The position numbers and the translations under genes were made by a program. From sequence record PZ583739.1: 64,000 nucleotides of DNA. One strand, written 5' to 3'. The notes under the pieces are model-generated. The model made no database searches and had not been told where the DNA came from. It saw only the letters and a program-made list of their open reading frames with translations. This document shows, in pieces, positions 14,031-62,515 of the stretch. This DNA is from a phage. Positions within the stretch are counted from its first letter, which is position 1; each line of letters starts with the position of its first letter.

Positions 14031-14396
14031 TTAGATATCAAATTCATTAAGAACTACATCAAAGATTGCTTCCAGGTGTTCAGGTTTTGCTTTGTTGCTC
14101 AGGATGTGACGAATCCAAGTTTTAACCAGAAGCTTGCGATTAACACCATTCCAGCAAGGATGAGTCCCTAAATCACGTTCACGGAAATCATCATCTAAAG
14201 CAATTTTAAAAGTTGAACCAGTCATAGTGATTGAAAGAGTGATACCATTTTCAAATCGCATATAAACGTAGTTAGGAGTCATATACTGTTCAATTTCGCA
14301 CACTGAACCATTTTTATGTTTCCATAAGCAAATAAATTCAGAAGAACCTGGGATGCAGTTAGAAACATATTTGCGTTCAAAGTTGATGTAGTTCAT
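14031..14396 (-). CDS. hypothetical protein
   Basis: 121 aa ORF preceded by a promoter/hairpin element at 14400-14460. Confidence 0.5.
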   Translation of the reverse strand: MNYINFERKYVSNCIPGSSEFICLWKHKNGSVCEIEQYMTPNYVYMRFENGITLSITMTGSTFKIALDDDFRERDLGTHPCWNGVNRKLLVKTWIRHILSNKAKPEHLEAIFDVVLNEFDI

Positions 14397-14467
14397 TTTA
14401 TTCTCCAGTTGTTTTCATTTGTTGGTACAGGTCTATAATATCATAACCTGTACCAAAGTAAACTGTT

Positions 14468-20715: not shown

Positions 20716-20743
20716 AATAATTTCCCCAATTTTATAATCCGTA

Positions 20744-20777
20744 GGAGCATTATACTCTGCTCCCATGAGTTTGTACA
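20744..20777 (-). promoter_or_regulatory. early promoter embedded in stem-loop (PeSL-like)
   Basis: Minus strand TGTACA, 17 nt, TATAAT; inverted repeat ggagca/tgctcc brackets the -10 box. Confidence 0.5.
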
Positions 20778-20881
20778 CTACTTTCCAAAAAGACCTTGAA
20801 CACATAAAGTGGCCGCAATTCCAAAACAAAAACAGAATGCACCAAATCTAACAATATCCCAACCAAGGCTACAGTTCTCTA

Positions 20882-30059: not shown

Positions 30060-30299
30060 TCACGCTTTCTTAGCGACTTTCCAGTCAGCTTTAAATTGGT
30101 CAACATCAGAGTGGTGAATCCAGAAACCAGATGAGCTACCATCTTCATAAAGAGGACAACCATCACACTCATCTTTCCAACCCATCGCACATAAAGTTTC
30201 TTCAGCTTTTTCCAGGGCTTCTGGATTGTTACCCTGGATTGTAAAGTACCATTTGCCTTTAACTTCTGAATCTTTGATGCTCTCACGTTGTAATTTCAT
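30060..30299 (-). CDS. hypothetical protein
   Basis: 79 aa; ATG preceded by conserved leader ...actggagaataaaATG. Confidence 0.5.
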   Translation of the reverse strand: MKLQRESIKDSEVKGKWYFTIQGNNPEALEKAEETLCAMGWKDECDGCPLYEDGSSSGFWIHHSDVDQFKADWKVAKKA

Positions 30300-30340
30300 T
30301 TTATTCTCCAGTGTTTTAGTTGTTAACTCAGTATGGGACC

Positions 30341-30369
30341 ATTATGTCATAGCCCCATTTGGTTGTACA
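30341..30369 (-). promoter_or_regulatory. early promoter (TGTACA / CATAAT) with conserved leader
   Basis: Minus strand TGTACA, 17 nt, CATAAT, then leader ggtcccatactgagttaacaac...ggagaataaaATG. Confidence 0.5.
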
Positions 30370-30643: not shown

Positions 30644-31007
30644 AAGTTGCTTTAATCAGCGCAATGACTTCTGCGGCATTTTTGTGATTGACTTGCACAT
30701 GAATGGTTTGGGTATCAACATCAGGAGCATCGCCATCAACTTCCAGGAAGTGACGGAATTCCCATTCAGCGAGTTCAAAGTACTCATCAGGCCCACCCAT
30801 ACTATTCAGGATAGTGCCATCTTTCATTTCAACTTTTTCAACAAAATAATCACCTTCAATATAACTCATATCCAGGACTTTGAAGGAATTGCCGTGTTGT
30901 TCCATCAACTTGACCATGCATGAATTATAATTATCATCAGCAATGGCAGAAGTGATGAATTGTTTTTTAGCAGCAGGGTCCAATACGTAAAATTTACCGG
31001 TTTCCAT
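30633..31007 (-). CDS. hypothetical protein (paralog of 31356..31718)
   Basis: 124 aa; shares DEYFELAEWEF / DDYFELSEEEF and start motifs with the 120 aa protein at 31356..31718. Confidence 0.5.
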   Translation of the reverse strand: METGKFYVLDPAAKKQFITSAIADDNYNSCMVKLMEQHGNSFKVLDMSYIEGDYFVEKVEMKDGTILNSMGGPDEYFELAEWEFRHFLEVDGDAPDVDTQTIHVQVNHKNAAEVIALIKATFGV

Positions 31008-31065
31008 TTTAATTTCCTCATTTTTGTTGAGGGAACATGATAATATGTTCCCATTGGTTTGTATA

Positions 31066-31293
31066 CTACGCTTGAATTAAGCCCATATAAAATTCAGCGT
31101 CTTCAGCATGCATACCGTCACAATACTCATCAGCCATAAAGCGAGTAAGGTCTTCAAGAGGACCTTGAACTTCAATTTGAATACTAAAGAATTGCGTATC
31201 TTTAATGTAAGTCATACTCAAAGAAGGATAGCGATTACGGATAACTTCGTAAGTGTATTCAAAATCAACGATATCAATATTAACCTTAGCCAT
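31066..31293 (-). CDS. hypothetical protein
   Basis: 75 aa ORF preceded by the promoter-hairpin at 31322-31352. Confidence 0.45.
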
Positions 31294-31321
31294 TTTATTT
31301 TCCTCATGTAGTTGATAGGTC

Positions 31322-31352
31322 TATAATAACATAATCATAGACCCGTTGTAAA
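31322..31352 (-). promoter_or_regulatory. early promoter (GTTTAC) with stem-loop over the -10 region
   Basis: Minus strand GTTTAC, then hairpin ggtctat...atagacc containing a TATTAT-like -10, then leader ...catgaggaaaataaaATG. Confidence 0.45.
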
Positions 31353-45035: not shown

Positions 45036-45046
45036 TACATAAGCGC

Positions 45047-45054
45047 TATAAATA
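45047..45054 (+). promoter_or_regulatory. T4-type late promoter (TATAAATA) for holin gene t
   Basis: tataaata 19 nt upstream of the t ATG, with SD AAGGAG between. Confidence 0.6.
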
Positions 45055-45072
45055 TCTTTAAAGGAGAAAAGT

Positions 45073-45726
45073 ATGGAACCAAAAGTAGGAATATCAATAC
45101 CCGACCTACTTTTTGGACTTCTTGATAGAATTTTTAAAGATAATGCGACCGGGAAAGTTGTTTTTTCCCGGGTACTAGTTATTGTTCTATTATTTTTAAT
45201 GGCGGTAATCTGGTATAAAGGTGATGCACTTTTAGATGCGTACAGGGATGCTTCATATGCCTCATACACAGAAATGATAAGGCAAGACCAGGACAACAGA
45301 TTTAAAATTGCAGCTATCGAGCAAATCCAGATAGTCCACTCGTCAAGTGGGGCAGACTTTACAGCAATATATTCTTTTAGACCAACTAACCTTAACTACT
45401 TTGTGGATATGGTGGGATACGAGGGGATATTGCCTGATACAGTCGACGAAAAAAATTTAGGTGGGTTTCCAATAGATAAAACTTCGGCGGAATATTTGGC
45501 GGGGGTTAATGGTAATTATTTTGAATCCAGTACGGAATCTGTATTCTTACCAACAAAGAAAAAAAGCAGCTTCTCATATATGTTCAGCTGCCCATTCTTT
45601 AATTTGGAAAACGTTTATGCAGGTACAGTCTCACTGTACTGGTATAAGCAAAAACCTAACCTTGGTTTTGATAGGCTTTCTGCTATGTGTGGACAAGCAG
45701 GTCGTACGCTTGGGCGTACACGTTAG
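45073..45726 (+). CDS. t: holin T (lysis inhibition-sensitive holin)
   Basis: 217 aa; LLFGLLDRIFKDNATGKV, single transmembrane segment, LPTKK...YMFSCPFFNLENVYAGT blocks match T4 holin T. Confidence 0.9.
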   Translation: MEPKVGISIPDLLFGLLDRIFKDNATGKVVFSRVLVIVLLFLMAVIWYKGDALLDAYRDASYASYTEMIRQDQDNRFKIAAIEQIQIVHSSSGADFTAIYSFRPTNLNYFVDMVGYEGILPDTVDEKNLGGFPIDKTSAEYLAGVNGNYFESSTESVFLPTKKKSSFSYMFSCPFFNLENVYAGTVSLYWYKQKPNLGFDRLSAMCGQAGRTLGRTR

Positions 45727-45998
45727 AATCCGGAGGTATACATCATAAGATAACGGTGTATATCTTCGAATCCTTCGTTAAATTGTTCAATGATTTGTTC
45801 AATTTCATCTTCAGATAAACTTTTAAACAACTTGTTAAACGATACATTGTTTAACTCATTCCCATTCTCATTTCTCAATCCCAACTCATTCAAAAACGCG
45901 ATAAACACATCACGCTTCATCGTAATATCTTCCCGGTCGGTTTTAATCAAAATTGAAGTTATAGTAACAATTTCAGAAACGATTTCAAATTTAGTCAT
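45723..45998 (-). CDS. asiA: anti-sigma70 factor AsiA
   Basis: 91 aa; EIVTITSILIK...FIAFLNELG...FNEGFEDIHRYLMMYT matches T4 AsiA (90 aa). Confidence 0.85.
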   Translation of the reverse strand: MTKFEIVSEIVTITSILIKTDREDITMKRDVFIAFLNELGLRNENGNELNNVSFNKLFKSLSEDEIEQIIEQFNEGFEDIHRYLMMYTSGF

Positions 45999-46047
45999 TT
46001 TAATTTACTCAAGTATTCAATAAGACATTCAATTATTCAGTAAGGGT

Positions 46048-46076
46048 ATTATACTATTATTCCTCTGGGTTGTACA
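46048..46076 (-). promoter_or_regulatory. early promoter (TGTACA / TATAAT) for asiA
   Basis: Minus strand TGTACA, 17 nt, TATAAT, about 45 nt upstream of the asiA ATG. Confidence 0.55.
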
Positions 46077-46221
46077 CATGATTTTCCATGTGTACAACAT
46101 ATTCCTGATACATCTGTTCAACTGGTTCCTGGAACTTAAAATCAGCTCCAAGGAATTCCTCAAAGCAAGCCAGCTCGCGTGTACGTTGACCGGTGATGGT
46201 GTTCTCTAAGTTATGACTCAT
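46057..46221 (-). CDS. small acidic ORF (54 aa), not in the ORF track
   Basis: ATG at 46219-46221; MSHNLENTITGQRTRELACFEEF...; overlaps the asiA promoter; speculative. Confidence 0.25.
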   Translation of the reverse strand: MSHNLENTITGQRTRELACFEEFLGADFKFQEPVEQMYQEYVVHMENHVYNPEE

Positions 46222-46310
46222 AATGATTCCCTTTGTGCTTCTGCTTACGTTTGGACTGCATTTTGGTTTTCTTCTTGTCCTTATGGACAGACGCCTTATT
46301 GAAATCGTGC

Positions 46311-46592
46311 TTAGCTACCAGATTGTTCATGCAATTTCCTTAATTGATATTCAAGAGAACTAATAATTTCTTTATTGGTTGCTATATACATATCACGCAG
46401 GAAAGGCTTCAATCCTACCATGCTTTCATGAAATGTCTTAGAACTAATATCCTTTATATATTCATGGTCTAAGGCTATCCATGCAGGTTGGTTAACATAA
46501 GTTCCCCAGTTGTCTTCCATCATAGTGTTCAGACGTTTGATATGATTGATATGGGTTTCGATTGCATCAATCTGGAGTTGTTTAAGGTTCAT
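46311..46592 (-). CDS. hypothetical protein (Arn position in T4)
   Basis: 93 aa ORF near asiA, where T4 carries arn (92 aa); sequence identity not verifiable by eye. Confidence 0.4.
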   Translation of the reverse strand: MNLKQLQIDAIETHINHIKRLNTMMEDNWGTYVNQPAWIALDHEYIKDISSKTFHESMVGLKPFLRDMYIATNKEIISSLEYQLRKLHEQSGS

Positions 46593-47080
46593 TAGTAAAG
46601 GTCCTCTGAATAAAGTTCTTTTTCGCTACCGCCACGTTCAATACGCACCTGATTTGCATAAGTCGCAATAATCATTGCTTCTTCGCGGGTCCAGTAATTG
46701 CTGTATTGGTCAATGAATCCTTGGTCGTCACCACAAACATGGTCCGACACAAGTTTATCACTTACCTGGTCAAGCACTTCTGCCATATCCTTGGAATAAT
46801 GTCTGGCACCAGGAATAACCAGAGTCCCACCATCTTTTAACTTAAAGCGGTTGGCTGCACATACAATCCGTCGCTGATATTTTTCATTATTGTTCCAATG
46901 AGCAATCTGCCAACAGATTTCAGGAACTTCTTCTAAAACATCCTCTTCCGTATATTCGGTGTAGTCACCATAGGCCTGTAATTTAGCTGCTAGACTTTCT
47001 GGAGTTTCACGAGAAAGAGCTTTATCTAATAAAGCCATACGGTCTTTAAAGGATAATTCTTTACCTTTTAATGGATTCAT
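46592..47080 (-). CDS. hypothetical protein
   Basis: Track start is TTG; ATG at 47078-47080 in ATGA overlap with the upstream stop; 162 aa. Confidence 0.45.
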
Positions 47081-47409
47081 TTGAACCAACCTTTAACACG
47101 TTGCCACAGACTTTTCTGTTGAGCTTTATTAACACCAATTGAGCGAATAACTGGTTGTGATTCCTGGTATTCTTTATAGTCAGCTTTATATACTTCATAT
47201 GCTGCTGGAACAAAAGCACCAATCGCTGCCATGAAGTTCTTGCGGACGCCAAACGGTGCTGTCGCATCATCCTGACGATGAATAAGATACTGACCAGCTT
47301 TGACCTTGACAATAGTTCCAAGGTAAGCGCCATGATACCAAACATCCCAACCCTCTTGAGTAGGTTCCGCACAAGCACGCAATTCATTAACAATATTCAG
47401 CTTATTCAT
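47077..47409 (-). CDS. hypothetical protein
   Basis: 110 aa; SD GAGGAAAT; preferred over the overlapping frame 47061..47393. Confidence 0.45.
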
Positions 47410-47416
47410 AATTTCC

Positions 47417-48025
47417 TCACTTTAAGATGTTAATAACATGTTGAATGTTTTCAGTTGACATATGATTGTCAATGTAGGTATTCAATCCACCTACTTTAAC
47501 GCTAAATCCCACGTCTGTAAACTGTTTTACTATCTTTTGTTCAGTATTATACGCATGCACACGAATCTGACCATCACGACGTACATCAATCTGTTTTAAT
47601 GTCTTGATACGCTTGAACTTCACAATCAGATTGCTGCGGTCTTCTGAAATGCTCTTAAAGTCAATACCAATAGACAATAATTGCTCTTTGATATATTCTG
47701 CAGTCGCTTCCATTTCATCAGTCACACCGCGTTTTGTTCTTGTCTTCTTCACTTCCAGAAGGTCGGGATTATTTTCATTCGCCCACAATTCTGCTGCATC
47801 CAGAATAAGGTCAACACCTTTTTCTGTAACCATCAAACCATCACCGGAAGCTTCAACATAGTTGTTATTCAACAATGTCTGTACACTATCAATTGATGTG
47901 TTCTGCTGGTCTAAAACAACTTCTGGACTCACAAAGTTGTTTTTGTATACAAACACCAGAGCATTAACATCAGTCTCATGTAGAGCGTTCTGGGAGCATT
48001 TAACGATATAATTTAACTTGTTCAC
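47417..48025 (-). CDS. motA: middle transcription activator MotA
   Basis: 202 aa aligning with T4 MotA from the N-terminus; apparent GTG start at 48023-48025 with SD AAGGGA. Confidence 0.75.
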   Translation of the reverse strand: MNKLNYIVKCSQNALHETDVNALVFVYKNNFVSPEVVLDQQNTSIDSVQTLLNNNYVEASGDGLMVTEKGVDLILDAAELWANENNPDLLEVKKTRTKRGVTDEMEATAEYIKEQLLSIGIDFKSISEDRSNLIVKFKRIKTLKQIDVRRDGQIRVHAYNTEQKIVKQFTDVGFSVKVGGLNTYIDNHMSTENIQHVINILK

Positions 48026-48027
48026 AA

Positions 48028-48243
48028 TTATCCCTTAATAGATTTCATATAATTTGATGCATATGATTGTACCACAGTACGTTTCATATGGGAAGTAGAA
48101 ACAATCACATCAATCGCTTGTTTACGTTCTTCTTTAGAGTTTGCCAGTTTGAACATGTCAAAGTAGTAATAACAAGCTTCTTTATTAGATTTGAATTTAG
48201 CGTTAATGTATTCTTGACCTTCATTCTGTTGTGCAGTAAACAT
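48028..48243 (-). CDS. hypothetical protein
   Basis: Track start is TTG; ATG at 48241-48243 preceded by conserved leader ...ctttggagaataaaATG; 71 aa. Confidence 0.45.
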   Translation of the reverse strand: MFTAQQNEGQEYINAKFKSNKEACYYYFDMFKLANSKEERKQAIDVIVSTSHMKRTVVQSYASNYMKSIKG

Positions 48244-48292
48244 TTTATTCTCCAAAGTTTTTGTGATTCATTGTGTAACTCAGTATGGAATC

Positions 48293-48321
48293 ATTATGCA
48301 GCGGGTCAAGGGGATTGTACA
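48293..48321 (-). promoter_or_regulatory. early promoter (TGTACA / CATAAT) with conserved leader
   Basis: Minus strand aaaaagtagTGTACA, 17 nt, CATAATgattccatactgagttacacaatgaatcac...ggagaataaaATG. Confidence 0.5.
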
Positions 48322-48334
48322 CTACTTTTTTTAA

Positions 48335-48360
48335 AATAAAAAAGGACCCCGAAGGGTCCT
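48335..48360 (-). terminator. rho-independent terminator
   Basis: ggaccc-ttcg-gggtcc hairpin followed by TTTTTTATTTT on the minus strand; forms a terminator-promoter cassette with the adjacent promoter. Confidence 0.6.
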
Positions 48361-48457
48361 AGTCTTTATCTATCTTATTACCAATAAACATACCAACAAT
48401 CACACCTGCGATTGCCGCGAAAATACAAAGCAATGCAAACTCAACTCCAAAACTCAT
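48359..48457 (-). CDS. small hydrophobic peptide (32 aa), not in the ORF track
   Basis: MSFGVEFALLCIFAAIAGVIVGMFIGNKIDKD directly downstream of gene 52; speculative. Confidence 0.3.
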   Translation of the reverse strand: MSFGVEFALLCIFAAIAGVIVGMFIGNKIDKD

Positions 48458-49833
48458 AGAGCCTCCAAATCATTAAGGTATTCAGTTTTAACATCAGTTG
48501 TCTTCCAGTACTCATGCTCAGCTTTCTTAGCCTTTGCTTCGTCTGCAAGCTTCTTGGCTTCATCAGAGGTCATATGGTAGATGTTCATCGCCACTAACTT
48601 CTCTGCATAATCGCCATATATTTCACTCGCCTGGAGTTCCTCAATCAACTTCTTACGAGGTTTCCCCTGGATAATAACCTTACCATCAATCACTTCTTTA
48701 ATAAAGAAGACTTTCGCACGGGCCAGTTTAAATGCCGCTTCAGTTTCTTTAATCTTGCTGTCAATTCGCACTTGAACATAGGTCTTACGGACATCCACGA
48801 AATCGCGAATCAGGTCAAGCGTGTTGGTGTATTCAGCTAATTTGCCTTTGTGATTAAGCACAGTTAAGTTCTGGGAGAGTTTCTCAATCAGACCAAAGTC
48901 TTTCATGATTTTCTCATGATTCTCTTCTTCAGTGCCATCCAACTTGTATTCTTTGCGGAATTTAATCTTAAACCCAAAACCATGTTCACCGCAGTTATCT
49001 TTCCAGGTGATAAAACCTTTCTCTTCCAGCGGGTCAAGTATTTTACTTGTATATTTTTCCAGGTTCCATTGGACCGGGATTTCAGTAATTTCCATTTGAG
49101 TCCGGGAAGTCATTTTGTATGTGCCATGAAGCTCATACTTACCAGGCTCTTCCAGCTCAACAACTTCACCGCGGAATTCTGGATATTTTACTTTCGGAGC
49201 AACCGGCTCACGACCTTCCACGATAGCTTTAACAGCTTCCTTGACGTCCTGGAACGAATGAGGAAGTATATCAGTAGCGAAGCCAACAGCAATCCCAGAA
49301 GTGGCGTTAAGTAATACAGTAGGAATAACAGGAAGATAAAAAGCAGGAGGCTTATGTTCTTCATCAGGATGGACCGGAGCATATTCTGTATCCTTAAACA
49401 AGTTATAAAAGTTCTTTGAAACCCTTGCGAATACATAACGAGCTGATGATGCTTCTGGCACCATTCTGGAACCAAAGTTGCCTTGTCCATCAAACATGGG
49501 GTATTCATTTTTATATGTTGCGACCAGACCAGAAGTTGCTTCTTCCGCTGATGCTTCGCCATGGTGATAACCATAATCAGCTACGCCACCTGCGATGGAT
49601 GCAACCTTATGGAATTTATTCTTATCACCACGAGCCAGGTCTAATGCTCTCGCCATAACAAATCTGTGAACTGGTTTAAAACCATCAATCATGTTTGGGA
49701 TGGCACGACCTTCCACAGTGTAGATAGCATATGACAATGCTTCCACATCAATAATGTCTTTTAGACTGCGTGGGTTAAGGGTCCCCACGGAATCACTGAA
49801 CTGTTTGGACATCATACTTAAAACGTCAGACAT
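48454..49833 (-). CDS. 52: DNA topoisomerase II medium subunit gp52
   Basis: 459 aa; GyrA-like N-terminal region (GFKPVHRFVMARALD...ASIAGGVADYGYHHGEAS); position after motA as in T4. Confidence 0.9.
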   Translation of the reverse strand: MSDVLSMMSKQFSDSVGTLNPRSLKDIIDVEALSYAIYTVEGRAIPNMIDGFKPVHRFVMARALDLARGDKNKFHKVASIAGGVADYGYHHGEASAEEATSGLVATYKNEYPMFDGQGNFGSRMVPEASSARYVFARVSKNFYNLFKDTEYAPVHPDEEHKPPAFYLPVIPTVLLNATSGIAVGFATDILPHSFQDVKEAVKAIVEGREPVAPKVKYPEFRGEVVELEEPGKYELHGTYKMTSRTQMEITEIPVQWNLEKYTSKILDPLEEKGFITWKDNCGEHGFGFKIKFRKEYKLDGTEEENHEKIMKDFGLIEKLSQNLTVLNHKGKLAEYTNTLDLIRDFVDVRKTYVQVRIDSKIKETEAAFKLARAKVFFIKEVIDGKVIIQGKPRKKLIEELQASEIYGDYAEKLVAMNIYHMTSDEAKKLADEAKAKKAEHEYWKTTDVKTEYLNDLEAL

Positions 49834-49841
49834 ATATCACC

Positions 49842-49982
49842 TTACCAGATTAACGAATGTACTGCCATTATAGCATCAGAAATAAAAAGCACAACCTGCA
49901 CTAATGCAAATACAACTCCATAATACAGCGCTACCAATAAGGCAGCAAGGGCTAACGAGTAGCCCAGGATTTTCTTAATCAT
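49842..49982 (-). CDS. small hydrophobic peptide (46 aa), not in the ORF track
   Basis: MIKKILGYSLALAALLVALYYGVVFALVQVVLFISDAIMAVHSLIW; ATGA overlap with the upstream stop; speculative. Confidence 0.3.
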   Translation of the reverse strand: MIKKILGYSLALAALLVALYYGVVFALVQVVLFISDAIMAVHSLIW

Positions 49983-50143
49983 TTATTAATAGCCGATTCA
50001 AGAAATTTAACTAAGGCATCCAGTACAAACCATGTGCAAATAAATCCTGCAAAAAGAGTACTTGGGACCCATACACCTGTAGCAAAAAGAGTCACAGCAA
50101 CGATAACAGCTACGAGCCAGATAAAAGTAAAAACTGATTGCAT
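49979..50143 (-). CDS. ac: small membrane protein (Ac-like by position)
   Basis: Track start is TTG; ATG at 50141-50143 with SD GAGGAAAAC gives 54 aa with two hydrophobic segments; T4 Ac is 51 aa at this position. Confidence 0.4.
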   Translation of the reverse strand: MQSVFTFIWLVAVIVAVTLFATGVWVPSTLFAGFICTWFVLDALVKFLESAINK

Positions 50144-50150
50144 GTTTTCC

Positions 50151-50231
50151 TCAGGGGCGTCCAAAGACGCCAGTTAATTTCAGATTATGACGATGCCATT
50201 GCATCACGTGCTCATTATGGAAATTACTCAT
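50151..50231 (-). CDS. stp: Stp peptide (suppressor of three-prime phosphatase; anticodon-nuclease activating peptide)
   Basis: 26-codon [29 protein letters not shown]; T4 Stp is 26 aa with a very similar sequence; lies between ndd and ac as in T4. Confidence 0.7.
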
Positions 50232-50232
50232 A

Positions 50233-50682
50233 TTAATAGCTCTGCAGAATGAATTTAAAGTTATCAGCAAGCATGCGATTCATTTCTGAAAGGGTCTGAC
50301 AATCAGAATTATGTGAGCGAGTGAACGCCATCGCAATTTGACCTTTACCGTAACCAGTTGTCAGAGGTTTCATTTTAGAAACTGGGACAAACAGGACTTC
50401 ATAGATAACCCCATTGTTCGCCATTGTGCGAGACAGTTGAGAACGCTGTTTGCGGATGTGACTTAATACAGTGTCAAACCCTTGTTGTGAACGTTGGTTA
50501 CCAACATAAAAACGTGCGGCAACAATACGTGATTCACCTTCACCTTTAACCACGAAATAAAAACCTGGTTGAGTGATAGCTTCTTTAGTTGGACGCCCTG
50601 CAACATAATTGCCATTATGGATGTAAGCAACAGTGGTAGCGCCAGCATTCAGTACGTCACGACGGGTCATGTAAGTAGTCAT
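50233..50682 (-). CDS. ndd: nucleoid disruption protein Ndd
   Basis: 149 aa; [37 protein letters not shown]...[20 protein letters not shown]...[15 protein letters not shown] matches T4 Ndd. Confidence 0.8.
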
Positions 50683-50720
50683 ATTAATTTCCTCAGTAAG
50701 TTAAAGTTTTGTGCTCCAGT

Positions 50721-50755
50721 GGGGTCATTATACTCTGACCCCATGAGTTTGTACA
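50721..50755 (-). promoter_or_regulatory. early promoter embedded in stem-loop (PeSL-like), near-identical copy of 62473..62507
   Basis: Minus strand TGTACA, 17 nt, TATAAT; ggggtca/tgacccc inverted repeat brackets the -10; about 45 bp nearly identical to 62465-62510. Confidence 0.55.
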
Positions 50756-51100
50756 CTATTTTTGAAGTTGTTCTAAAATAAATCCGCTGGTGTAAAGGCT
50801 TGCATTATACAGGCGGTCAAGAGATAACGAATCCAATCCATAAGCTTCACGAATTGCATTGATAACACTTTCATAACTTGTATAATAAACATCGCGATAA
50901 TCGCGGTCCATAGTCATGCGGAACTTAATAAATTTGTAGAAACCAGTTTCAGGGTCCTGATAGAATGCAAATTCTGCAGACATCAAATTTTTAAGGTTAA
51001 CAGCCTTTGTACCACCTGAATAACTTAAATCAAATGCTTCTGATACGCTAATCTGTTTAAAGAACATAATGTTGCGATTACCAAAAAATACTTTAGACAT
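50756..51100 (-). CDS. hypothetical protein
   Basis: Track ORF 50756..51124; ATG at 51098-51100 with SD GGAAAA gives 114 aa. Confidence 0.45.
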   Translation of the reverse strand: MSKVFFGNRNIMFFKQISVSEAFDLSYSGGTKAVNLKNLMSAEFAFYQDPETGFYKFIKFRMTMDRDYRDVYYTSYESVINAIREAYGLDSLSLDRLYNASLYTSGFILEQLQK

Positions 51101-51110
51101 AATATTTTCC

Positions 51111-51323
51111 TTATTCAGCGTCAACAGAAATAGCCATCAGTTCATCAACGGTAAGGCACTGTACACTAGGGCCTACACAAAAACGCTTAGTTGAATCATA
51201 AAGGTCCGTAGCATTAACAGGTTGTAATTCGGTCCCAACTTGCAAAGGAGAAATGCGAATCAGTTGTTGGCCATTATGTAATACAAAGCTCTCGCCGACT
51301 ACCACATCTTTAAAAAGTTTCAT
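51111..51323 (-). CDS. hypothetical protein
   Basis: 70 aa ORF. Confidence 0.4.
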   Translation of the reverse strand: MKLFKDVVVGESFVLHNGQQLIRISPLQVGTELQPVNATDLYDSTKRFCVGPSVQCLTVDELMAISVDAE

Positions 51324-51340
51324 AATGTTTTCCTCAGAAG

Positions 51341-51529
51341 TTAAAGAATTTCTTCAATTTGGATGTATTTGCTATAACCTTCCTCAATGAGGATATCACG
51401 AGCACAATCAGCACTGATATAAGCATTAAAGCTAAGGGTTGCAATCACTTTACCGTGCAGCTTTACTTTATAAATTCGATTACCCATAATATTTTCCTCA
51501 GAAGTTAAAGAATACACGTACATGGTCAA
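51341..51529 (-). CDS. hypothetical protein
   Basis: 62 aa ORF; start may be an internal ATG. Confidence 0.35.
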   Translation of the reverse strand: MTMYVYSLTSEENIMGNRIYKVKLHGKVIATLSFNAYISADCARDILIEEGYSKYIQIEEIL

Positions 51530-51822
51530 TCATAAAAACGATTGGGAAAATGCTCAATACCATTAACAACACAAACATGTTCCAAATGACTTTAAGTAAC
51601 TTTTTCATAATCATCTCCAGCAGTTGATAGGTTCATTATACTACAACCACCGGAGATGTACAACTCTTTTATGCAAGTTTCATTAATAATAAACTAAAAC
51701 AAACGCAAATTACTGGGATACACAACATCCAGATAAGACACCAGGTTTTGCTGCTCAAAATATCACCTCTTTTATTTCAATCAGACCCCTGTGCAATGCG
51801 GTGCGAAGGTCATAAAGAATAT

Positions 51823-52020
51823 CTATGCCATCAACATTATCCAGTTTTCCATCAATAAGCTTTTTAAATCACGCTTTGATGCAACTAGCGGGCGAAGAAA
51901 TTTACATTCAGAAAGAGACAATTCTGTAGTAATATCATCACCATCACCTGACGCATCATACATGGCAGCAACAACCATACCTGTAACTTTGTGCTTGGCG
52001 TAATATAATTTGATATCCAT
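51823..52020 (-). CDS. hypothetical protein
   Basis: ATG at 52018-52020 preceded by leader catgaggaaaacaaaATG (also seen at 8013 and 18484); 65 aa. Confidence 0.4.
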   Translation of the reverse strand: MDIKLYYAKHKVTGMVVAAMYDASGDGDDITTELSLSECKFLRPLVASKRDLKSLLMENWIMLMA

Positions 52021-52030
52021 TTTGTTTTCC

Positions 52031-52186
52031 TCATGCATAACGATTGTATGTATTTTTGCGACACGCGTAAAATTGACGCTCAGTAACTGCAAAACTTTTT
52101 CCGCGCTGTTGCATTAATTTAAAAAATTCAGTAATATCGCCATTAACTTCAAGGTATAAAGTCATTGCATATTGAGCAGGTTTCAT
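52031..52186 (-). CDS. small ORF (51 aa), not in the ORF track
   Basis: ATG at 52184-52186 preceded by conserved leader ...actggagaataaaATG; MKPAQYAMTLYLEVNGD... Confidence 0.35.
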   Translation of the reverse strand: MKPAQYAMTLYLEVNGDITEFFKLMQQRGKSFAVTERQFYACRKNTYNRYA

Positions 52187-52211
52187 TTTATTCTCCAGTC
52201 TGTTTGGTAAC

Positions 52212-52254
52212 TCAGTATGGAATCATTATACAATAGACTCCATACTGATGTACA
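52212..52254 (-). promoter_or_regulatory. early promoter embedded in stem-loop (PeSL-like)
   Basis: Minus strand TGTACA, 18 nt, TATAAT; 10-bp inverted repeat tcagtatgga/tccatactga brackets the -10. Confidence 0.5.
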
Positions 52255-52265
52255 CTACTTTTTAA

Positions 52266-52541
52266 TTAATTGTGCATTTGTTCTTTAACTTCTTTATATG
52301 CGCCAACTGCATTCACGACCCCAGTAAAATCTGCAGTCCCACGATATAGATAGAAAGCAATTTCAGTCAGGTGGTATACTTCAAATTCTGAAAGATAAAT
52401 GATAACGTCATAATATGCAACTTGACCCTGGACTTCGTTGAATGCCACATCAAAAATTTCATGGGTTGGAAAATTGATGTTGTTGTTTTTGAGTGCTTGG
52501 ATAAGGATTTGTTTGATGTTGTGAGTAGTAACGTGTTCCAT
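52266..52541 (-). CDS. hypothetical protein
   Basis: Track ORF 52266..52646 overlaps its upstream neighbour; ATG with SD GAGGA gives 91 aa (MEHVTTHNIKQ...). Confidence 0.45.
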   Translation of the reverse strand: MEHVTTHNIKQILIQALKNNNINFPTHEIFDVAFNEVQGQVAYYDVIIYLSEFEVYHLTEIAFYLYRGTADFTGVVNAVGAYKEVKEQMHN

Positions 52542-52588
52542 GATAATGTCCTCATTTGTTGGTATGAGGACATTATTACACAGTTGGT

Positions 52589-53185
52589 TCAGCTTGTAAA
52601 CCGGTGATAGGGAAATTTTTCTTCTGAACAAGAACGGAGGTACCAACCATCCCCTTGTGACTTCTGCACAAGACCAGACTCAGGAACGAAAGCACCAGGT
52701 CCAGCAAGGAATTTTGGTTTAAATCTATAACCTTTGAGAGTCTCTTTTACATTAAACATAATCATAAGGTCAGCAAGCTTGTGTTGCATAAAAGGACCAA
52801 GATTGACCCCGTAACCATGCGGATAATCACCCTGGTGACCAGTATGCACGGATATCCATTTGGAACCAGACTGATGAGTCTTGACTTCGATTCTTACCCC
52901 TTCCTTCGAAACTACATCAAATGCAAAGGAATAAGGATTATCGTAATCTTCATCACCGCCACATAAAAAACCGGAGGTCCATTTAGCAATAGCTTGTTCA
53001 GCCATTGTGGCCACCATACATCTTTGCATGACTTGCTCACGGTCCTGACCTGGGTCTTTACGCAATGAATACCTAGCCGTGTCTACAATCTTTTGCAGGG
53101 ATTCAGGGGTTAAGTCTTCCTTTGTATAAAGAAAGGAGGGCATCTTTTTCAGATGCTCCCATGTTTTACTCTTCTGAATCATCAG
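52589..53185 (-). CDS. hypothetical protein (T4 denB position; identity unconfirmed)
   Basis: Track start is TTG at 53266; ATG at 53180-53182 (adopted end coordinate 53185 is approximate within a few nt) gives about 198 aa; lies between rIIB and the ndd-proximal genes. Confidence 0.35.
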   Translation of the reverse strand: MMIQKSKTWEHLKKMPSFLYTKEDLTPESLQKIVDTARYSLRKDPGQDREQVMQRCMVATMAEQAIAKWTSGFLCGGDEDYDNPYSFAFDVVSKEGVRIEVKTHQSGSKWISVHTGHQGDYPHGYGVNLGPFMQHKLADLMIMFNVKETLKGYRFKPKFLAGPGAFVPESGLVQKSQGDGWYLRSCSEEKFPYHRFTS

Positions 53186-53186
53186 C

Positions 53187-53507
53187 TCATCCTTTAAAAT
53201 ACATATCGGATTTTTCGACAATATCCAAAGAATTTTGCTCAGCTTGCTCTTGATAATCACTGCCAATATAAACTTTGTCTACATGAACGACGCCATAATA
53301 AATTCTGGCACTTTCGGCTAGAGTGGAATGGTCCAGACTACGAAGTTCTTCTTTCGTTGCAAGAATGATGTCTCTCGCATATAACCGGCCAGTTGACTTT
53401 GTAGAAGCATAATGGCAATCAACACAATAAACAATATCCGCAACATGATTACCATGCAACCGAATTTCGTTAATAGATTCATCACCAACGTTCATATAGT
53501 TAATCAT
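53187..53507 (-). CDS. hypothetical protein
   Basis: 106 aa ORF. Confidence 0.4.
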   Translation of the reverse strand: MINYMNVGDESINEIRLHGNHVADIVYCVDCHYASTKSTGRLYARDIILATKEELRSLDHSTLAESARIYYGVVHVDKVYIGSDYQEQAEQNSLDIVEKSDMYFKG

Positions 53508-53510
53508 AAT

Positions 53511-53708
53511 TTATTCACCAAAATAAGAGATACGAACTGCCAGTATATGAGCATAAGCGCCCATCGCGTCGAGTTGTGCAATCAAAAGACCTTGTTGACG
53601 GATGTCAAGAGTTTCAAAAACACCGCCCTTAATAAATTCTTCAAGAGCATTGATTTTCAAAACCAGCTGGTCGTATTCTTCAACTACACGTGCTTGGAAA
53701 CCTAACAT
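53511..53708 (-). CDS. hypothetical protein
   Basis: 65 aa ORF directly downstream of rIIB. Confidence 0.4.
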   Translation of the reverse strand: MLGFQARVVEEYDQLVLKINALEEFIKGGVFETLDIRQQGLLIAQLDAMGAYAHILAVRISYFGE

Positions 53709-53720
53709 AAAGCCTCATTA

Positions 53721-53734
53721 GGGGCCGAAGCCCC
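53721..53734 (-). other. GC hairpin with tetraloop between rIIB and the next gene
   Basis: ggggc-cgaa-gcccc (UUCG-type loop on the minus strand); no strong T-run, so may be an RNA stability or processing element rather than a terminator. Confidence 0.4.
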
Positions 53735-53741
53735 GATTAAT

Positions 53742-54713
53742 TTAAAATTGTTCAGTTACATCATCAAGGACCAGGTAACCACAGACCCTCATCTTACTAT
53801 CCCCATAATCCACCGGGATACTTACAACATCACGCGGGTGAACTTTACAGGATACGATGCGTCCATCACCATGACCAAAACCACTTCCGATATAGCCTTT
53901 AGAGCAAACATGCAACCCGGTTGAACAGGTCTGTTCGTCATTGTCATTCACACGAGAGCGCGGCATTTTAACATATTGACCAGGGCTGTTGTCGAATGTG
54001 TTTGAGTGACAATCTTTGTAAGTTGCACGAACCATTTTCCATGCGATGAAATGACCGTCTTCGGTGATTTCGATATCGTTTGCAACCAGGAAGTCAAACA
54101 AACGCTGTACAGCTTTCTCACTCGGATTCTCAAGGAGATTCTCAAGGAACGGCAGATAGAATTCAAAGTCTTCACCATTTTGCATTGAATCAATGATACG
54201 AGTAACCAGGCCAGAGCGCAGTTCAATTCCCTGATAGAACAAACTACCACCTTCAATACGCACATCACCTTTCACATATTTTTGTACTGCAGCTTTGATT
54301 GAGATAAACTCGATAGCATCTTCATAACGGAATTCAATCAATGCCTGAATAATATCATCAAAGTGTTTATGGTCTTTTGTTGCGTTCCAGACTGTACGGC
54401 CTTCAGTGATGGAAACGAATTTACTCGATGCGTTCCATACGATTTCCGGGCGGCTTCCACCGATTGTATCAGTAACCGGGACTTCAACCGTTACTGTCAC
54501 CGGAGCATTAATCGCCACGCCAACAGCTGCTTTCAGTGATGCAGAAATGGTTTTAGCTAATTTTGATTCTTTATCATTTTTCAAAACGCGGCGAATGGTG
54601 TCGACGGACACGGCAAAATATTCTGCCAATTCAGGCTGGGTATAATTGCCTGTTGAATACATCTGGACCACATCAGCTTGTTCGGCTTTAGACATACATT
54701 TGATATTAAACAT
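53742..54713 (-). CDS. rIIB: rIIB protein
   Basis: 323 aa; MFNIKCMSKAEQADVVQMYSTGNYTQPELAEYFAVSVDTIRRVLKN and the C-terminal half closely match T4 rIIB. Confidence 0.9.
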   Translation of the reverse strand: MFNIKCMSKAEQADVVQMYSTGNYTQPELAEYFAVSVDTIRRVLKNDKESKLAKTISASLKAAVGVAINAPVTVTVEVPVTDTIGGSRPEIVWNASSKFVSITEGRTVWNATKDHKHFDDIIQALIEFRYEDAIEFISIKAAVQKYVKGDVRIEGGSLFYQGIELRSGLVTRIIDSMQNGEDFEFYLPFLENLLENPSEKAVQRLFDFLVANDIEITEDGHFIAWKMVRATYKDCHSNTFDNSPGQYVKMPRSRVNDNDEQTCSTGLHVCSKGYIGSGFGHGDGRIVSCKVHPRDVVSIPVDYGDSKMRVCGYLVLDDVTEQF

Positions 54714-54714
54714 A

Positions 54715-56949
54715 TTATTCCTTATTGGCCGCTTCCACGGCCTTCATGATTTGAGCAACGTTCTGTACTTGTTCAGTTGACATAGCGTTACGGTTATATA
54801 AAAAGTGTGAAACAATCGGGTGATTCTTTTCAAATTCAAAAACCATTTTATCGCTTGTTACTGAAGCGTTTTTGGTCAGGTCGTAATAAATCTTATTACA
54901 AAGGACCAGTGTTTCCTGCATGGTTTTATCAACCGTTCCACTGTTATATGCGTTATAAGCAAAGAACTTATTGAACTGCATTAGTTCGGCATAGTCAGTA
55001 TTCACATCTTTCTGAACATCTTTTGCATAAAAATACTTGAACATAAAATTCAGTTCTGCATATTCAGACAGGATAGGAATATAATAACGCGAACGGCTTG
55101 AAGCGGCAATGTACTGGTCCACATCAACCGCATCAATCAATTCTACATAACGATTGACCGCAGCTTCAATCAGACAATCACACTGCGTCAGCTTGGTAAC
55201 CTTTTTCTGAAGCTGTGGACGAATAACACAGAATTCATTGATTTCCAACAGGTTTGCCAGTTTACACAATGTCTGGGTCCCGAAGGTCGTGGTGCCATAT
55301 TCCTGATTCAACGGGGAAATGCTACTGCGGTTAATGAATACAGCATAACCATCGATTTCCTCTGCATCAGCTGCACATGTAAATTCTTCAACAGACTGCC
55401 ATTTGCCATTAGTTTTAGTCCAACGAATCACCGATGGAGTCTTTGACTTAACACGCTCTTTCGGGTCCGCAACCGGAATCCAGTCTTTTACAAGGGCAGT
55501 CAGTTCAGACGTACGATAGATATTAACTGTATCGCCTTTAAATCGTTCCTGGAGTTGAACCATCAACCGTGTTTGAATTTCGCTGGTCGGGTCAACAAAC
55601 AGTAAACTACTACCCTGACGAGTCGGGACTTTACCAGATGCAATAAGCTTTTTGGCTTTTGCACTGGTATCATACAACATTGAACTGATACCGCGAATCA
55701 TCGCAATTCGCCCTTTAACATCATCAATAACAATGTTCAAGGTATCATTCTGAATACCAAACATGCTCGTCAGACTTGCTGTGTTCGAGTTTGAGCTTGA
55801 GTTGCGCAGACGTTTCAGACGAGTGTCACGATAGATATCATAAACAACCCCGGCATTAATAAGGTCTTTGTCCAGCTCGAACATTTCGTACATCTGGTTA
55901 AAGGTCAATTGTGATTTCGTAAATTTCGTTTCAGCATTACGAGCTTTCAGAAAATTACGAGCTTCATAATTCAGATTCTGCAATTCGCGATATGTATGGC
56001 GGAGACATTCTGATTCCTGCCATTTCTTACAATCGTCTTCCATGACTTTCTTATCAAGGGTTTCAATACGTTCAACGATATTTGCGACCGTACGTTTGTC
56101 CAGCGATAATGCTTCACGAGAAGGTGCGATATCCAGCGAACCCATCGGGAACTTAATAAAGACAACATCATTTTTGGCAGTCATCCAGGTTTTCTTTGTA
56201 TACCCGCCATCAATCGGATAAACAATTCCGCCATAAATTGCATAAAGTCCATAACGTTCTGGGCTGCTATAATCAATACGCTCTGGAGCATAATAATCAT
56301 CAAATTCCGGGAAATAATTAATTTCGCCTACGCCTTGTACTTCAGCCAGTCCAGCAAATGGGCGCATGATATATGCAATCTCGTGGCGGAACTTACCAAA
56401 ATCATTACTATCAACCGGGACAACAACTTCAATCCCTGTGCGGTCGCCAGGTTTCATTGGTTCGCTAAAGGTTGGCTTAATCTGTGGACCATCGCCGTCC
56501 ATATAAGCGACATAACCATTAACTTGACCATCATGATATGAAATCAGGCTAAACGTCTCTGTATAACTGAACGGAGATTTAGAACCCAGACCAAAGCCAC
56601 CAATAAAATCGTTGGATTCAGCCTTGGATGATGCAAAGAAACTGTTATACAGACCTGGGGTATTTTCATCACCACGAATCTGGAAATCACTCATACCTGG
56701 ACCAAAGTCACGACATACAAAACGTGGGTCCAGTTCGCCAGGAGCTTGAACAATGAATTTATCCTGACAGCCATTGAGCATATGAGCATCAATCATATTG
56801 GTAATCAGCTCACGAACAACCGCGCGCACCTTGTTTGTATAAAGGTCGCTGGTCAGAATCTTAAACACCTTTGGAGATGCCTGGATTGTGAATGCTGATG
56901 CTTTGGCACCATTACCAAGGATTGTTTCTTTTTCAGTTTCTAAAATCAT
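54715..56949 (-). CDS. rIIA: rIIA protein (GHKL-type ATPase fold)
   Basis: 744 aa; ETILGNGAKASAFTIQAS...RELITNMIDAH...FIGGFGLGSKSPF match T4 rIIA. Confidence 0.9.
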   Translation of the reverse strand: MILETEKETILGNGAKASAFTIQASPKVFKILTSDLYTNKVRAVVRELITNMIDAHMLNGCQDKFIVQAPGELDPRFVCRDFGPGMSDFQIRGDENTPGLYNSFFASSKAESNDFIGGFGLGSKSPFSYTETFSLISYHDGQVNGYVAYMDGDGPQIKPTFSEPMKPGDRTGIEVVVPVDSNDFGKFRHEIAYIMRPFAGLAEVQGVGEINYFPEFDDYYAPERIDYSSPERYGLYAIYGGIVYPIDGGYTKKTWMTAKNDVVFIKFPMGSLDIAPSREALSLDKRTVANIVERIETLDKKVMEDDCKKWQESECLRHTYRELQNLNYEARNFLKARNAETKFTKSQLTFNQMYEMFELDKDLINAGVVYDIYRDTRLKRLRNSSSNSNTASLTSMFGIQNDTLNIVIDDVKGRIAMIRGISSMLYDTSAKAKKLIASGKVPTRQGSSLLFVDPTSEIQTRLMVQLQERFKGDTVNIYRTSELTALVKDWIPVADPKERVKSKTPSVIRWTKTNGKWQSVEEFTCAADAEEIDGYAVFINRSSISPLNQEYGTTTFGTQTLCKLANLLEINEFCVIRPQLQKKVTKLTQCDCLIEAAVNRYVELIDAVDVDQYIAASSRSRYYIPILSEYAELNFMFKYFYAKDVQKDVNTDYAELMQFNKFFAYNAYNSGTVDKTMQETLVLCNKIYYDLTKNASVTSDKMVFEFEKNHPIVSHFLYNRNAMSTEQVQNVAQIMKAVEAANKE

Positions 56950-56956
56950 GTTTTTC

Positions 56957-57166
56957 TCACTTTATGTTACGTTTGATTAATTCTGCAACTTCAAGAAGTT
57001 CATCCTTTGTTGCGGTGTCTGAAGCTATTTTAATACGGATTTCTTTGAAGCGTTCTTTAAACTCTTCAGCTTCTCTTATATCAAAAAATCGTTGGATAAC
57101 ACGGTATTCTTTATGGATAGCCTTATCAAACAGTTCCATATTAACTTTGAAGTTCGTCATTTCCAA
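56957..57166 (-). CDS. hypothetical protein
   Basis: 69 aa ORF between gene 39 and rIIA. Confidence 0.4.
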   Translation of the reverse strand: MEMTNFKVNMELFDKAIHKEYRVIQRFFDIREAEEFKERFKEIRIKIASDTATKDELLEVAELIKRNIK

Positions 57167-57425: not shown

Positions 57426-57442
57426 ATTTTCACCTCAAAGAC

Positions 57443-57497
57443 ATATTAACACACTTTTTGTGGCTTGTACATAATAAAAAAGGACCCGAAGGTCCTT
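57443..57497 (-). promoter_or_regulatory. terminator hairpin followed by early promoter (PeSL-like cassette)
   Basis: Minus strand aggacc-ttcg-ggtcct hairpin plus TTTTTTATT, then TGTACA, 17 nt, TAATAT. Confidence 0.5.
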
Positions 57498-62436: not shown

Positions 62437-62472
62437 AATTTTCTCTCTTGGTTAATAAGTTTATTCTCCAGT

Positions 62473-62507
62473 GGGGTCATTATACTCTGACCCCAAGAGT
62501 TTGTACA
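62473..62507 (-). promoter_or_regulatory. early promoter embedded in stem-loop (PeSL-like), near-identical copy of 50721..50755
   Basis: Minus strand TGTACA, 17 nt, TATAAT; ggggtca/tgacccc stem around the -10. Confidence 0.55.
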
Positions 62508-62515
62508 CTTTAAAT

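Follow-up and report, generated by a model that had tools for sequence, protein, structure and literature searches.

Why do two genes of a T4-like phage, ndd and motB, carry almost the same sequence of about 45 bp directly upstream? The question is raised by the 64,000-nucleotide stretch of sequence record PZ583739.1 analyzed here (the window), which belongs to a T4-like coliphage of the genus Gaprivervirus and is 91-98% identical, in a mosaic pattern, to vB_EcoM_RZ, DK-13, P479, UPEC07, VR20, VR26, SP18, and the TH series. An earlier reading of the letters (the sequence-only reading) had described the repeat as a promoter set in a hairpin and likened it to the promoter early stem-loop (PeSL) cassettes, which were defined in RB49 and phi1 (Arbiol et al. 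2010, PMC2839356) and extended to T4/PST and KVP40/nt-1 (Comeau et al. 2014, PMC4122927). We consider it likely that each copy is an early promoter cassette of the PeSL type, used by the sigma-70 host RNA polymerase and carrying a stem-loop over the -10 box, and that the hairpin acts at the RNA level as an insulator against read-through.

The repeat itself was confirmed. The sequence quoted for it lies at 50715-50757, and the second copy is one mismatch away (core at 62477-62509). A search of the window with the 33-nt core, allowing up to three mismatches, returned 50725-50757 (0 mismatches), 62477-62509 (1), and 20747-20779 (3), the last of which corresponds to the third related copy proposed earlier; no match was found in 100 dinucleotide-preserving shuffles. 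Extended to 44 bases, copies 1 and 2 are identical at 43 positions (50714-50757 versus 62466-62509) with a sole mismatch at 50744/62496. Copy 3 (20736-20779) differs at 9 of the 44 positions, and four of these nine make up two compensatory changes of stem pairs, which turn GGGGTCA/TGACCCC into GGGAGCA/TGCTCCC. The genes around the three copies are all encoded on the minus strand. The near-identical repeat is real and selected, and it is newly described in the genus Gaprivervirus.

The anatomy of the three copies is that of an early promoter. TGTACA, 17 nt, and TATAAT follow one another on the minus strand exactly as had been stated, at three of three sites, and the looser pattern TGTACA-N15-19-TATAAT has six matches in the window versus 0.08 expected. 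Against TTGACA/TATAAT, all three score 10/12. The stop codon of the preceding gene lies within an A-rich stretch just 5' of the -35 box, as in PeSLs: copy 1 is preceded by CTTCAAAAATAG, with the TAG stop of the preceding open reading frame (ORF) at 50756-50758 adjoining the -35 box, and copy 2 by TTTTTAATTAAATTTAAAG, with a TAA stop at 62516-62518. A T4-type early promoter (Pe) is recognized by a GTTTAC-like -35 element (-36 to -31), TATAAT (-12 to -7), an A-rich, UP-like stretch (approximately -40 to -44), extra conserved positions, and an early gene downstream; the T4 consensus has been described (PMC1524935, PMC2988021), and C is preferred at -3 to -1 in several T4-like phages (PMC1524935). 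The corresponding sequences found here are GTGTAC or GTTTAC at -35, TATAAT at -10, AAAAA upstream, and CCC at -3 to -1.

The inverted repeat said to bracket the -10 box is also present, as GGGGTCA/TGACCCC around an 8-nt loop, GAGUAUAA, the last T of TATAAT being the first base of the 3' arm. It is followed by CTGGAG in copies 1 and 2 and by ACGGAT in copy 3, and 15-25 nt later by a separate ribosome-binding site and ATG. At this 3' end of the cassette stand GAGGAAATTAATATG (ndd), GAGAGAAAATTATG (motB), and GGGGAAATTATTATG (a pseT.1-like ORF, 20395-20715, which overlaps the start of pseT). The CTGGAG of copy 1 is hence distinct from the actual ribosome-binding site of ndd, which is the GAGGAAATTAATATG further downstream. 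In PeSLs of RB49 and phi1, the stem-loop most commonly lies over the -10 box or in the interval that separates the -35 box from the -10 box, and the stem is typically GGGG...CCCC (PMC2839356). The hairpin found here is of this kind, with GGGGUCA/UGACCCC arms, the -10 box in the loop, and stable folding. Folds of 71 nt gave -17.3 kcal/mol (z = -2.8) for copy 1, -19.3 kcal/mol (z = -3.25) for copy 2, and z = -1.1 for copy 3; folds of 51 nt gave -17.0 kcal/mol for copy 1, -18.3 kcal/mol for copy 2, and z = -3.4 for copy 3.

It could be argued that there is nothing special about these loci, in that both promoters merely come close to a common early consensus and the inverted repeat is incidental. 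A repeat finder combined with a motif scan of the window identified 17 promoters of the early type; they are confined to the minus strand of the early regions, and the tail-fibre block has none. Their shared frame is AAAAAGTAGTGTACA (or GTTTAC), 16-18 nt, (T/C)AT(A/T)AT, and a conserved start region, for example, GATTCCATACTGAGTTA or CCATCAACTAC. The 17 have AAAGTAGTGTACA, (T/C)ATAAT, and this start region in common, and the 3' arm of the hairpin, CCCC before the start, falls within the general consensus, given the preference for C at -3 to -1 (PMC1524935). However, 41 of 46 aligned positions, spacer included, agree between copies 1 and 2, whereas the median over the 136 pairs of the 17 promoters is 20 of 46; their similarity therefore exceeds the shared promoter consensus. 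In addition, the stem covaries over five genera, and unrelated stems produce the same architecture at other promoters. This explanation is thus very improbable, and we rejected pure consensus similarity on the grounds of an identical spacer and a covarying stem.

Covariation was examined in 14 members of the family, which come from Gaprivervirus, Dhakavirus, Tequatrovirus (T4), Kanagawavirus, and Mosigvirus; a 13-sequence version was also run. Across the 14 members, 96.9% of stem positions are paired, three of the seven stem pairs change on both sides, and one pair of columns (18-31) is occupied by five pair types. None of 500 shuffles reached the observed pairing or covariation score, and slid partners paired at only 42-52%. 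Within the genus, the ndd copy is nearly invariant across eleven Gaprivervirus relatives, and the motB copy varies with its pairing kept, for example, GGGGCCG/UGGCCCC in DK-13 and GGGGCCA/UGGUCCC in PSD2001, TH15, and TH41. Judging from these comparisons of sequences, the stem is under selection.

The two strands are not equivalent in this respect. Of 34 unique strong cassettes, 32 fold more stably on the sense than on the antisense strand. The sense folds have 59 G.U pairs to a single A.C mismatch, the antisense folds 25 G.U pairs to 22 A.C mismatches, and at nine independent loci of the window, the difference between sense and antisense is -2.9 kcal/mol versus +0.14 expected from composition. 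Because the wobble pairs are G.U on the sense strand, the molecule that folds would be a single-stranded sense molecule, most simply RNA, and neither a DNA cruciform nor an antisense terminator. This points to a hairpin that acts as RNA in read-through transcripts, as far as can be judged from pairing patterns. The moderately U-rich AUGAGUUUGUACACUAUUUUUG follows the stem on the plus strand, and plus-strand folds are stable (z about -3), as would suit an intrinsic terminator of plus-strand, that is, antisense transcription. Such a role is extremely improbable: the U-run stands apart from the stem, the element is missing from the list of a terminator scan, the wobbles turn into A.C on that strand, and the window has separate canonical bidirectional terminators. 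We rejected it on the ground that the wobble pairs are on the wrong strand. The same strand asymmetry led us to reject a DNA cruciform or recombinase site as the main role of the element.

The promoter subfamily extends well beyond the window. There are three to four copies per Gaprivervirus genome, and in each of the eleven relatives the ndd and motB copies precede the same conserved genes at orthologous positions. Elsewhere, members of the subfamily occur between 55.3 and 55.2 of JS98, in which PeSL-like sequences had already been noted (PMC2839356), before ndd in a Kanagawavirus (GAGGACA/UGUCCUC), and in a Mosigvirus. The Dhakavirus Bp7 has an ndd promoter in the same place and with the same architecture, yet with a wholly different stem, CGAGAAUCAU/AUGGUUCUCG. 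In IMG/VR, the exact 22-mer was found in four stretches on three contigs of 170-172 kb, a degenerate cassette pattern gave no match there, and Rfam 15 had no match at the gathering threshold anywhere in the window. IMG/VR contributed no further diversity, and the comparisons draw on phage records of GenBank. A mobile element resembling a miniature inverted-repeat transposable element or a transposon end was rejected since the ndd and motB copies are fixed and orthologous in all relatives; no target-site-type duplication flanks any of the three copies. The near-identity at ndd and motB would rather reflect an old promoter subfamily dispersed over the Tevenvirinae, combined with patch-wise copying, than recent transposition.

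The cassette is ordinary for this group of phages, and T4 has the same element. T4 motB carries the orthologous cassette TTTACAAACTCTTGGGACCAGAGTATAATGGTCCCGTGGAG (NC_000866, approximately 7160-7220), in the same position with respect to motB as copy 2 and identical to it at 31 of 35 core bases, including the loop GAGUAUAA, the spacer AAACUCUUG, the GGAG after the stem, and the separate ribosome-binding site that follows. The T4 stem is GGGACCA/UGGUCCC instead of GGGGUCA/UGACCCC, a difference of two compensatory pair changes, and the T4 -35 element is GTTTAC. At the same motB site of phage SA21RB, a T4-type early promoter (by similarity) and an overlapping terminator are annotated. Unlike copy 1, T4 ndd has no early promoter directly before the gene (T4 2042-2101, minus strand). 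What T4 has before ndd is another hairpin of 9 bp, GGCCGUGUG/CAUGCGGCC, after which come UUGGAG and the same ribosome-binding region; the layout of a hairpin plus GGAG thus persists there without a promoter.

Two further observations concern motB. The gene upstream of it (62516-63268, minus strand, 250 amino acids) carries a MotB domain (Pfam PF17613) at its C terminus and has in common with motB a 60-nt stretch that is 73% identical (62574-62633 versus 61946-62005); it is a tandem paralog of motB. The window's motB (186 amino acids) contains approximately 63 nt, at 62138-62188, that are extra by comparison to six relatives.

How might such a cassette work? The predicted start is the A with which the 3' arm ends, seven bases past TATAAT (50720, 62472). 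With the start at the 3' foot of the stem, the cassette's own transcripts would lack the hairpin and only read-through RNAs would carry it; transcripts of the two kinds would therefore differ in structure beside a RegB-type motif. We propose that the promoter fires straight after infection and drives ndd, motB, and pseT.1/pseT, respectively. Read on the minus strand, the layout would be the upstream stop in its A-rich stretch, GTGTACA, the 17-nt spacer, TATAAT, a C-rich stretch before the start, a GGA(G/U)-A-rich motif, the ribosome-binding site, and ATG, with a G+C-rich hairpin of 7-8 bp that links the spacer with the stretch before the start and appears to be selected as sense-strand RNA. 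The hairpin would most likely insulate the upstream transcription unit in read-through RNA, and there are two conceivable routes. It could attenuate or terminate read-through, for which a stem-loop of one RB49 PeSL is a precedent, as it reduced the expression of a downstream reporter to the same degree as rrnB T1 (Arbiol et al. 2010, PMC2839356). Alternatively, it could form a protective structure beside GGAG, a RegB-type cleavage motif.

Several observations weigh against this proposal. Both promoter activity and the start site are predicted from consensus and spacing, with orthology to the T4 motB site as a further ground for activity, and the sole experimental test of termination concerned a different stem-loop, that of RB49. 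There is no U-tract after the stem, where the sense strand continues with ACUGGAGCAC or ACUGGAGAAU, and classical intrinsic termination is therefore doubtful; the three copies are also missing from the list of terminator-like elements that a simple terminator scan gave for 45000-64000. The shuffle controls overstate significance because the family members used for covariation are related sequences, and the Mosigvirus EP32B has one A.C mismatch in the stem. Finally, the sense fold of copy 1 is no more stable than its antisense fold, so that the asymmetry argument rests on the family and not on copy 1.

With Rho-independent terminators of T4-like phages, the cassettes share a stable, G+C-rich hairpin placed where a gene ends, and the motB element of SA21RB has been called a terminator. 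We nevertheless rejected a classical Rho-independent terminator in view of the missing U-tract, by which the cassettes differ from canonical terminators of the window such as AAAAAGGGACCCGAAGGTCCCTTTT at 7694-7721, 31798-31825, and 57472-57499. There are two families of canonical bidirectional terminators in the window, namely AAAAAGGGACCCGAAGGTCCCTTTT, which occurs also at 48335-48362, and AAAAAGGGCCGAAGCCCTTTT (10171-10205, 23873-23907, 60360-60394). Those at 31798-31825 and 48335-48362 directly adjoin an early promoter. Hairpin promoters of the type known from phage N4 have 3-nt loops and are read by a virion RNA polymerase. To our knowledge, T4-like phages lack an N4-type virion RNA polymerase, and on this general background, together with the 3-nt loops, we rejected an N4-type hairpin promoter.

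The sequence next to the stem suggests another role for the RNA hairpin. A motif resembling GGA(G/U)-(A/U)AUAAA lies directly 3' of the stem in every member of the subfamily. The consensus of strong RegB sites is GGAGRAYARAA, and secondary structure blocks RegB (PMC3014915). GGAKDAYARA occurs nine times in the window versus 3.8 expected, always on the minus strand, and eight of the nine lie a short way downstream of an early promoter. The RegB-like motif of copies 2 and 3 is distinct from the true ribosome-binding site. The hairpin could mainly be an RNA switch that, in read-through RNA, shields the GGA(G/U)-A-rich motif (either a RegB site or a ribosome-binding site) or, once RegB has cut, caps the upstream fragment; locally started transcripts, without the hairpin, would expose the motif at their 5' end, and the two classes of RNA would differ in translation or decay. 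Such a switch is possible, if on balance doubtful. It would fit the outer stem, in which, for copies 1 and 2 as well as T4 motB, CUC(U) of the spacer pairs with (G)GAG (in copy 1, CUC at 50747-50745 with the GAG of CUGGAG), and it would have precedents in T4 gene e and I-TevI (PMC3014915). Against it, the paired GGAG at ndd and motB is not the functional ribosome-binding site, and RegB cleavage of these leaders is a prediction from their sequence. The switch is compatible with an insulating early promoter cassette and differs from it only in the role given to the RNA hairpin.

T4 genes e, soc, 49, and I-TevI provide the closest known parallel, each having a promoter within an inhibitory RNA hairpin (reviewed in PMC3014915). 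Here, as there, a promoter lies in or at the foot of an RNA hairpin such that read-through transcripts fold and local transcripts do not. The known cases, however, involve late promoters (TATAAATA) and block the translation of late genes early in infection, whereas the promoters described here are early. Moreover, the true ribosome-binding site of copies 1-3 is 15-25 nt beyond the stem, and only the upstream GGAG is partly paired. One cassette comes nearer to the T4 cases: at 51614-51662, the ribosome-binding GGAG of a downstream ORF of 38 amino acids pairs with CUCC beside the -35 box, so that this early promoter has a stem of approximately 17 bp that sequesters its own ribosome-binding site in the same way. 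This hairpin, which also speaks for the RNA switch, is retained in Dhakavirus Bp7 with compensatory changes.

The cassette at 51614-51662 belongs to a wider set. A hairpin around the -10 box, or one overlapping it, is present at nine of the 17 early-type promoters. For eight of these, z is about -3 to -5.8 versus shuffled controls; the ninth (31032-31060) has z = -2.3, for a slightly offset segment. The stems are unrelated in sequence: besides GGGGUCA/UGACCCC and GGGAGCA/UGCUCCU, they include GGUCUAUGAU/AUUAUAGACC, the approximately 17-bp stem just described, and those listed in the table below. Among the other early promoters, one has a stem around the -35 box (22295-22323), and two have a canonical terminator just upstream (31757-31825, 48293-48362).

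It is tempting to regard the -10 hairpin as a general device of early genes of T-even phages, by which folded read-through RNAs are kept apart from locally started RNAs. The fold in read-through RNA would hide the RegB-type motif or, in some cassettes, the ribosome-binding site, or would leave a capped 3' end after cleavage. In local RNA, the motif would be exposed within the first dozen nucleotides, so that RegB would cleave the RNA, polynucleotide kinase would phosphorylate the 5' end, and decay would be rapid. We regard so broad a generalization as speculative and rather unlikely. If true, toxic immediate-early genes such as ndd and motB would gain a leader that lets them fire once and then self-destruct, and the paradigm of late promoters established for e, soc, and I-TevI would extend to early promoters. 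More generally, the compensatory upkeep of the stem over at least five genera and the G.U pairs on the sense strand suggest an RNA-level role for PeSL stem-loops, the published discussion of which stresses DNA-level recombination, and the predicted structural difference between the two kinds of transcripts offers an idea of how immediate-early genes might be insulated and shut off.

Table. Positions of the promoter cassettes, their parts, and associated genes and motifs in the window
Feature	Position	Strand	Details
Copy 1, early promoter cassette	50714..50757	minus	upstream of ndd; sequence AGTGTACAAACTCATGGGGTCAGAGTATAATGACCCCACTGGAG
Copy 1, -35 hexamer	50750..50755	minus	TGTACA; GTGTAC here versus GTTTAC in the T4 early consensus
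Copy 1, -10 hexamer	50727..50732	minus	TATAAT, inside the hairpin loop
Copy 1, hairpin	50720..50743	minus	5' arm UGGGGUCA (50743-50736), loop GAGUAUAA (50735-50728), 3' arm UGACCCCA (50727-50720)
Copy 1, CTGGAG	50714..50719	minus	begins GGAGCACAAAA; near match to strong RegB-site consensus GGAGRAYARAA
ndd ORF	50233-50682	minus	ATG at 50682; copy 1 directly upstream
Copy 2, early promoter cassette	62466..62509	minus	upstream of motB; -35 62502-62507, -10 62479-62484, hairpin 62472-62495
Copy 2, post-stem motif	62471 down to 62460	minus	CTGGAGAATAAA
motB ORF	61876-62436	minus	copy 2 directly upstream
Copy 3, diverged member	20736..20779	minus	upstream of pseT.1-like ORF and pseT; -35 20772-20777, -10 20749-20754
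Copy 3, stem and motif	20731-20740 (motif)	minus	stem GGGAGCA/UGCUCCU; motif GGAUUAUAAA
Related early promoter	52186..52254	minus	stem CAGUAUGGAGUC/GAUUCCAUACUG, -10 in loop, then CTGGAGAATAAAATG; z = -5.75
Related early promoter	51614..51662	minus	hairpin of ~17 bp; z = -4.8
Related early promoter	30299..30369	minus	stem AUGGGGCU/GGUCCCAU around CATAAT -10; module-swap junction (TH15, TH57)
Related early promoter (TATACA, TATTAT)	31007..31067	minus	stem GGGAACAU/AUGUUCCC around -10; module-swap junction
Related early promoter (TTTACA, TATTAT)	31293..31352	minus	10-bp stem overlapping -10; z = -3.2
Related early promoter (TTTACT, TATTAT)	14396..14462	minus	stem UGGUACAGGU/ACCUGUACCA, ~10 pairs, longer in predicted fold, encloses -10; z = -5.1
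GGAKDAYARA	14397, 14837, 20731, 30300, 48244, 52187, 60291, 62460, 63526	minus	

At the level of sequence, the cassettes of the window show every feature by which PeSLs of RB49 and phi1 were recognized. They recur in intergenic positions, an A/T-rich stretch holds the stop codon of the upstream gene, and strong sigma-70-type boxes are 17 nt apart; a stem-loop with a G-run and a C-run covers the -10 box, which is one of the two commonest positions in phi1, and a ribosome-binding site and ATG follow. The early regions concerned are variable, and some endpoints of indels and rearrangements fall between the -10 box and ATG. There are also differences. The -35 element is GTGTAC or GTTTAC here and a near-perfect TTGACA in RB49. 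Promoter and terminator activity as well as mini-circles are experimental findings in RB49, whereas the cassettes described here are known from their sequence. By comparison to T4/PST, of which the ndd region is a published example of PeSL-associated exchange, the stem-loop encloses the -10 box instead of lying upstream of the promoter. As stable, orthologous promoters that serve conserved genes, the ndd and motB copies do not flank ORFans, and the enrichment of breakpoints is not significant. The likeness to PeSLs proposed by the sequence-only reading therefore stands for structure, that is, a sigma-70-type promoter with a stem-loop over the -10 box, and only in part for the flanking of variable genes and for gene shuffling.

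Collinearity breaks were listed from an alignment of the window to the eleven Gaprivervirus relatives, and the gene map followed a first-ATG rule with two manual corrections. A gene-content breakpoint falls on neither copy 1 nor copy 2 in comparison with these relatives; both are fixed before conserved genes, and it is copy 3 alone that flanks variable genes. In at least five relatives (TH40, TH44, TH54, TH55, and TH57), a segment of 444-474 bp lies between the copy 3 cassette and the downstream gene; the insert encodes an ORF of 156 amino acids in TH55, and its junction is at start codons (ATGA microhomology) with no second cassette. Many indels are found in the ndd-denB and motB regions. Of 44 breakpoint clusters in early regions, 37 are at gene junctions. 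Breakpoints occur at 8 of 17 junctions with a promoter versus 25 of 65 without (p = 0.58) and, for promoters with a hairpin, at 6 of 9 versus 27 of 73 (p = 0.15), figures that depend on the rough gene map. The comparison of insertion points among relatives that had been suggested thus gave a divided answer, with no significant enrichment at promoter junctions on one side and a module swap and patch copying at cassettes on the other.

The swap is seen in TH15 and TH57, in which the adjacent early gene modules 30363-31019 and 31072-31737 are in reverse order relative to the window (TH15 31556-32908). All three junctions are inside promoter cassettes, one crossover lies directly past the -10 region, and either arrangement keeps a promoter at every junction. 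In SP18, TH44, TH41, and DK-13, the segment that replaces 51111-51485 carries a copy-3-type cassette, which in SP18 is 29 nt from the edge of the segment. As to patch copying, both flanks of the window's ndd upstream region are nearly identical to Bp7, and a core of approximately 40 nt is of the motB type; from this pattern of sequence identity, the ndd promoter core looks like a patch exchanged between promoter cassettes in one lineage.

These observations lend themselves to the view that the cassettes are mainly recombination linkers, in which short homology or a protein-recognized hairpin or cruciform drives exchange, mini-circle excision, and reinsertion, and for which near-identity is maintained. 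In line with this, breakpoints at cassettes lie between the -10 box and ATG, the same interval as the crossovers of RB49 mini-circles. We nonetheless consider it unlikely as the main role. Copies 1 and 2 are fixed in all relatives and free of breakpoints, T4 has the motB copy, and promoter junctions are not significantly enriched. Most of approximately 25 distinct insertions in relatives are without a cassette, others are homing endonuclease genes, and many breakpoints are at plain start or stop codons, repeated ribosome-binding regions, or homing endonuclease genes. The wobble asymmetry, too, speaks against a DNA cruciform, in which both strands must pair. The shuffling model is tempered accordingly: cassettes are sometimes points of exchange, and breakpoints are here spread over gene junctions in general.

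Some features of the same regions are recorded here as observations in their own right. A 29-nt translation-initiation module, CATAAT(A/G)TTTTCCTCAGAAGTTAAAGAAT, is present on the plus strand at 51321-51349 and 51485-51513 (97% identity), before two small ORFs, and its copy at 51485-51500 coincides with the endpoint of the replaced segment in SP18, DK-13, TH41, TH44, and TH54. Downstream of the promoter at 30341-30369, two minus-strand ORFs overlap, 29708-30286 (GTG start, 192 amino acids) and 30060-30299 (ATG start, 79 amino acids), and relatives have insertions of 188-441 bp at 30046-30069; the overlapping ORFs at 29708-30299 may constitute a fused or disrupted gene. At 59522-60322 on the minus strand, an ORF of 266 amino acids with GIY-YIG, NUMOD3, and I-TevI DNA-binding domains encodes a Seg-like homing endonuclease. 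This ORF and the start of the topoisomerase large-subunit gene (57697-59529) overlap, and, among the relatives examined, the ORF is shared by the window with P479 only.

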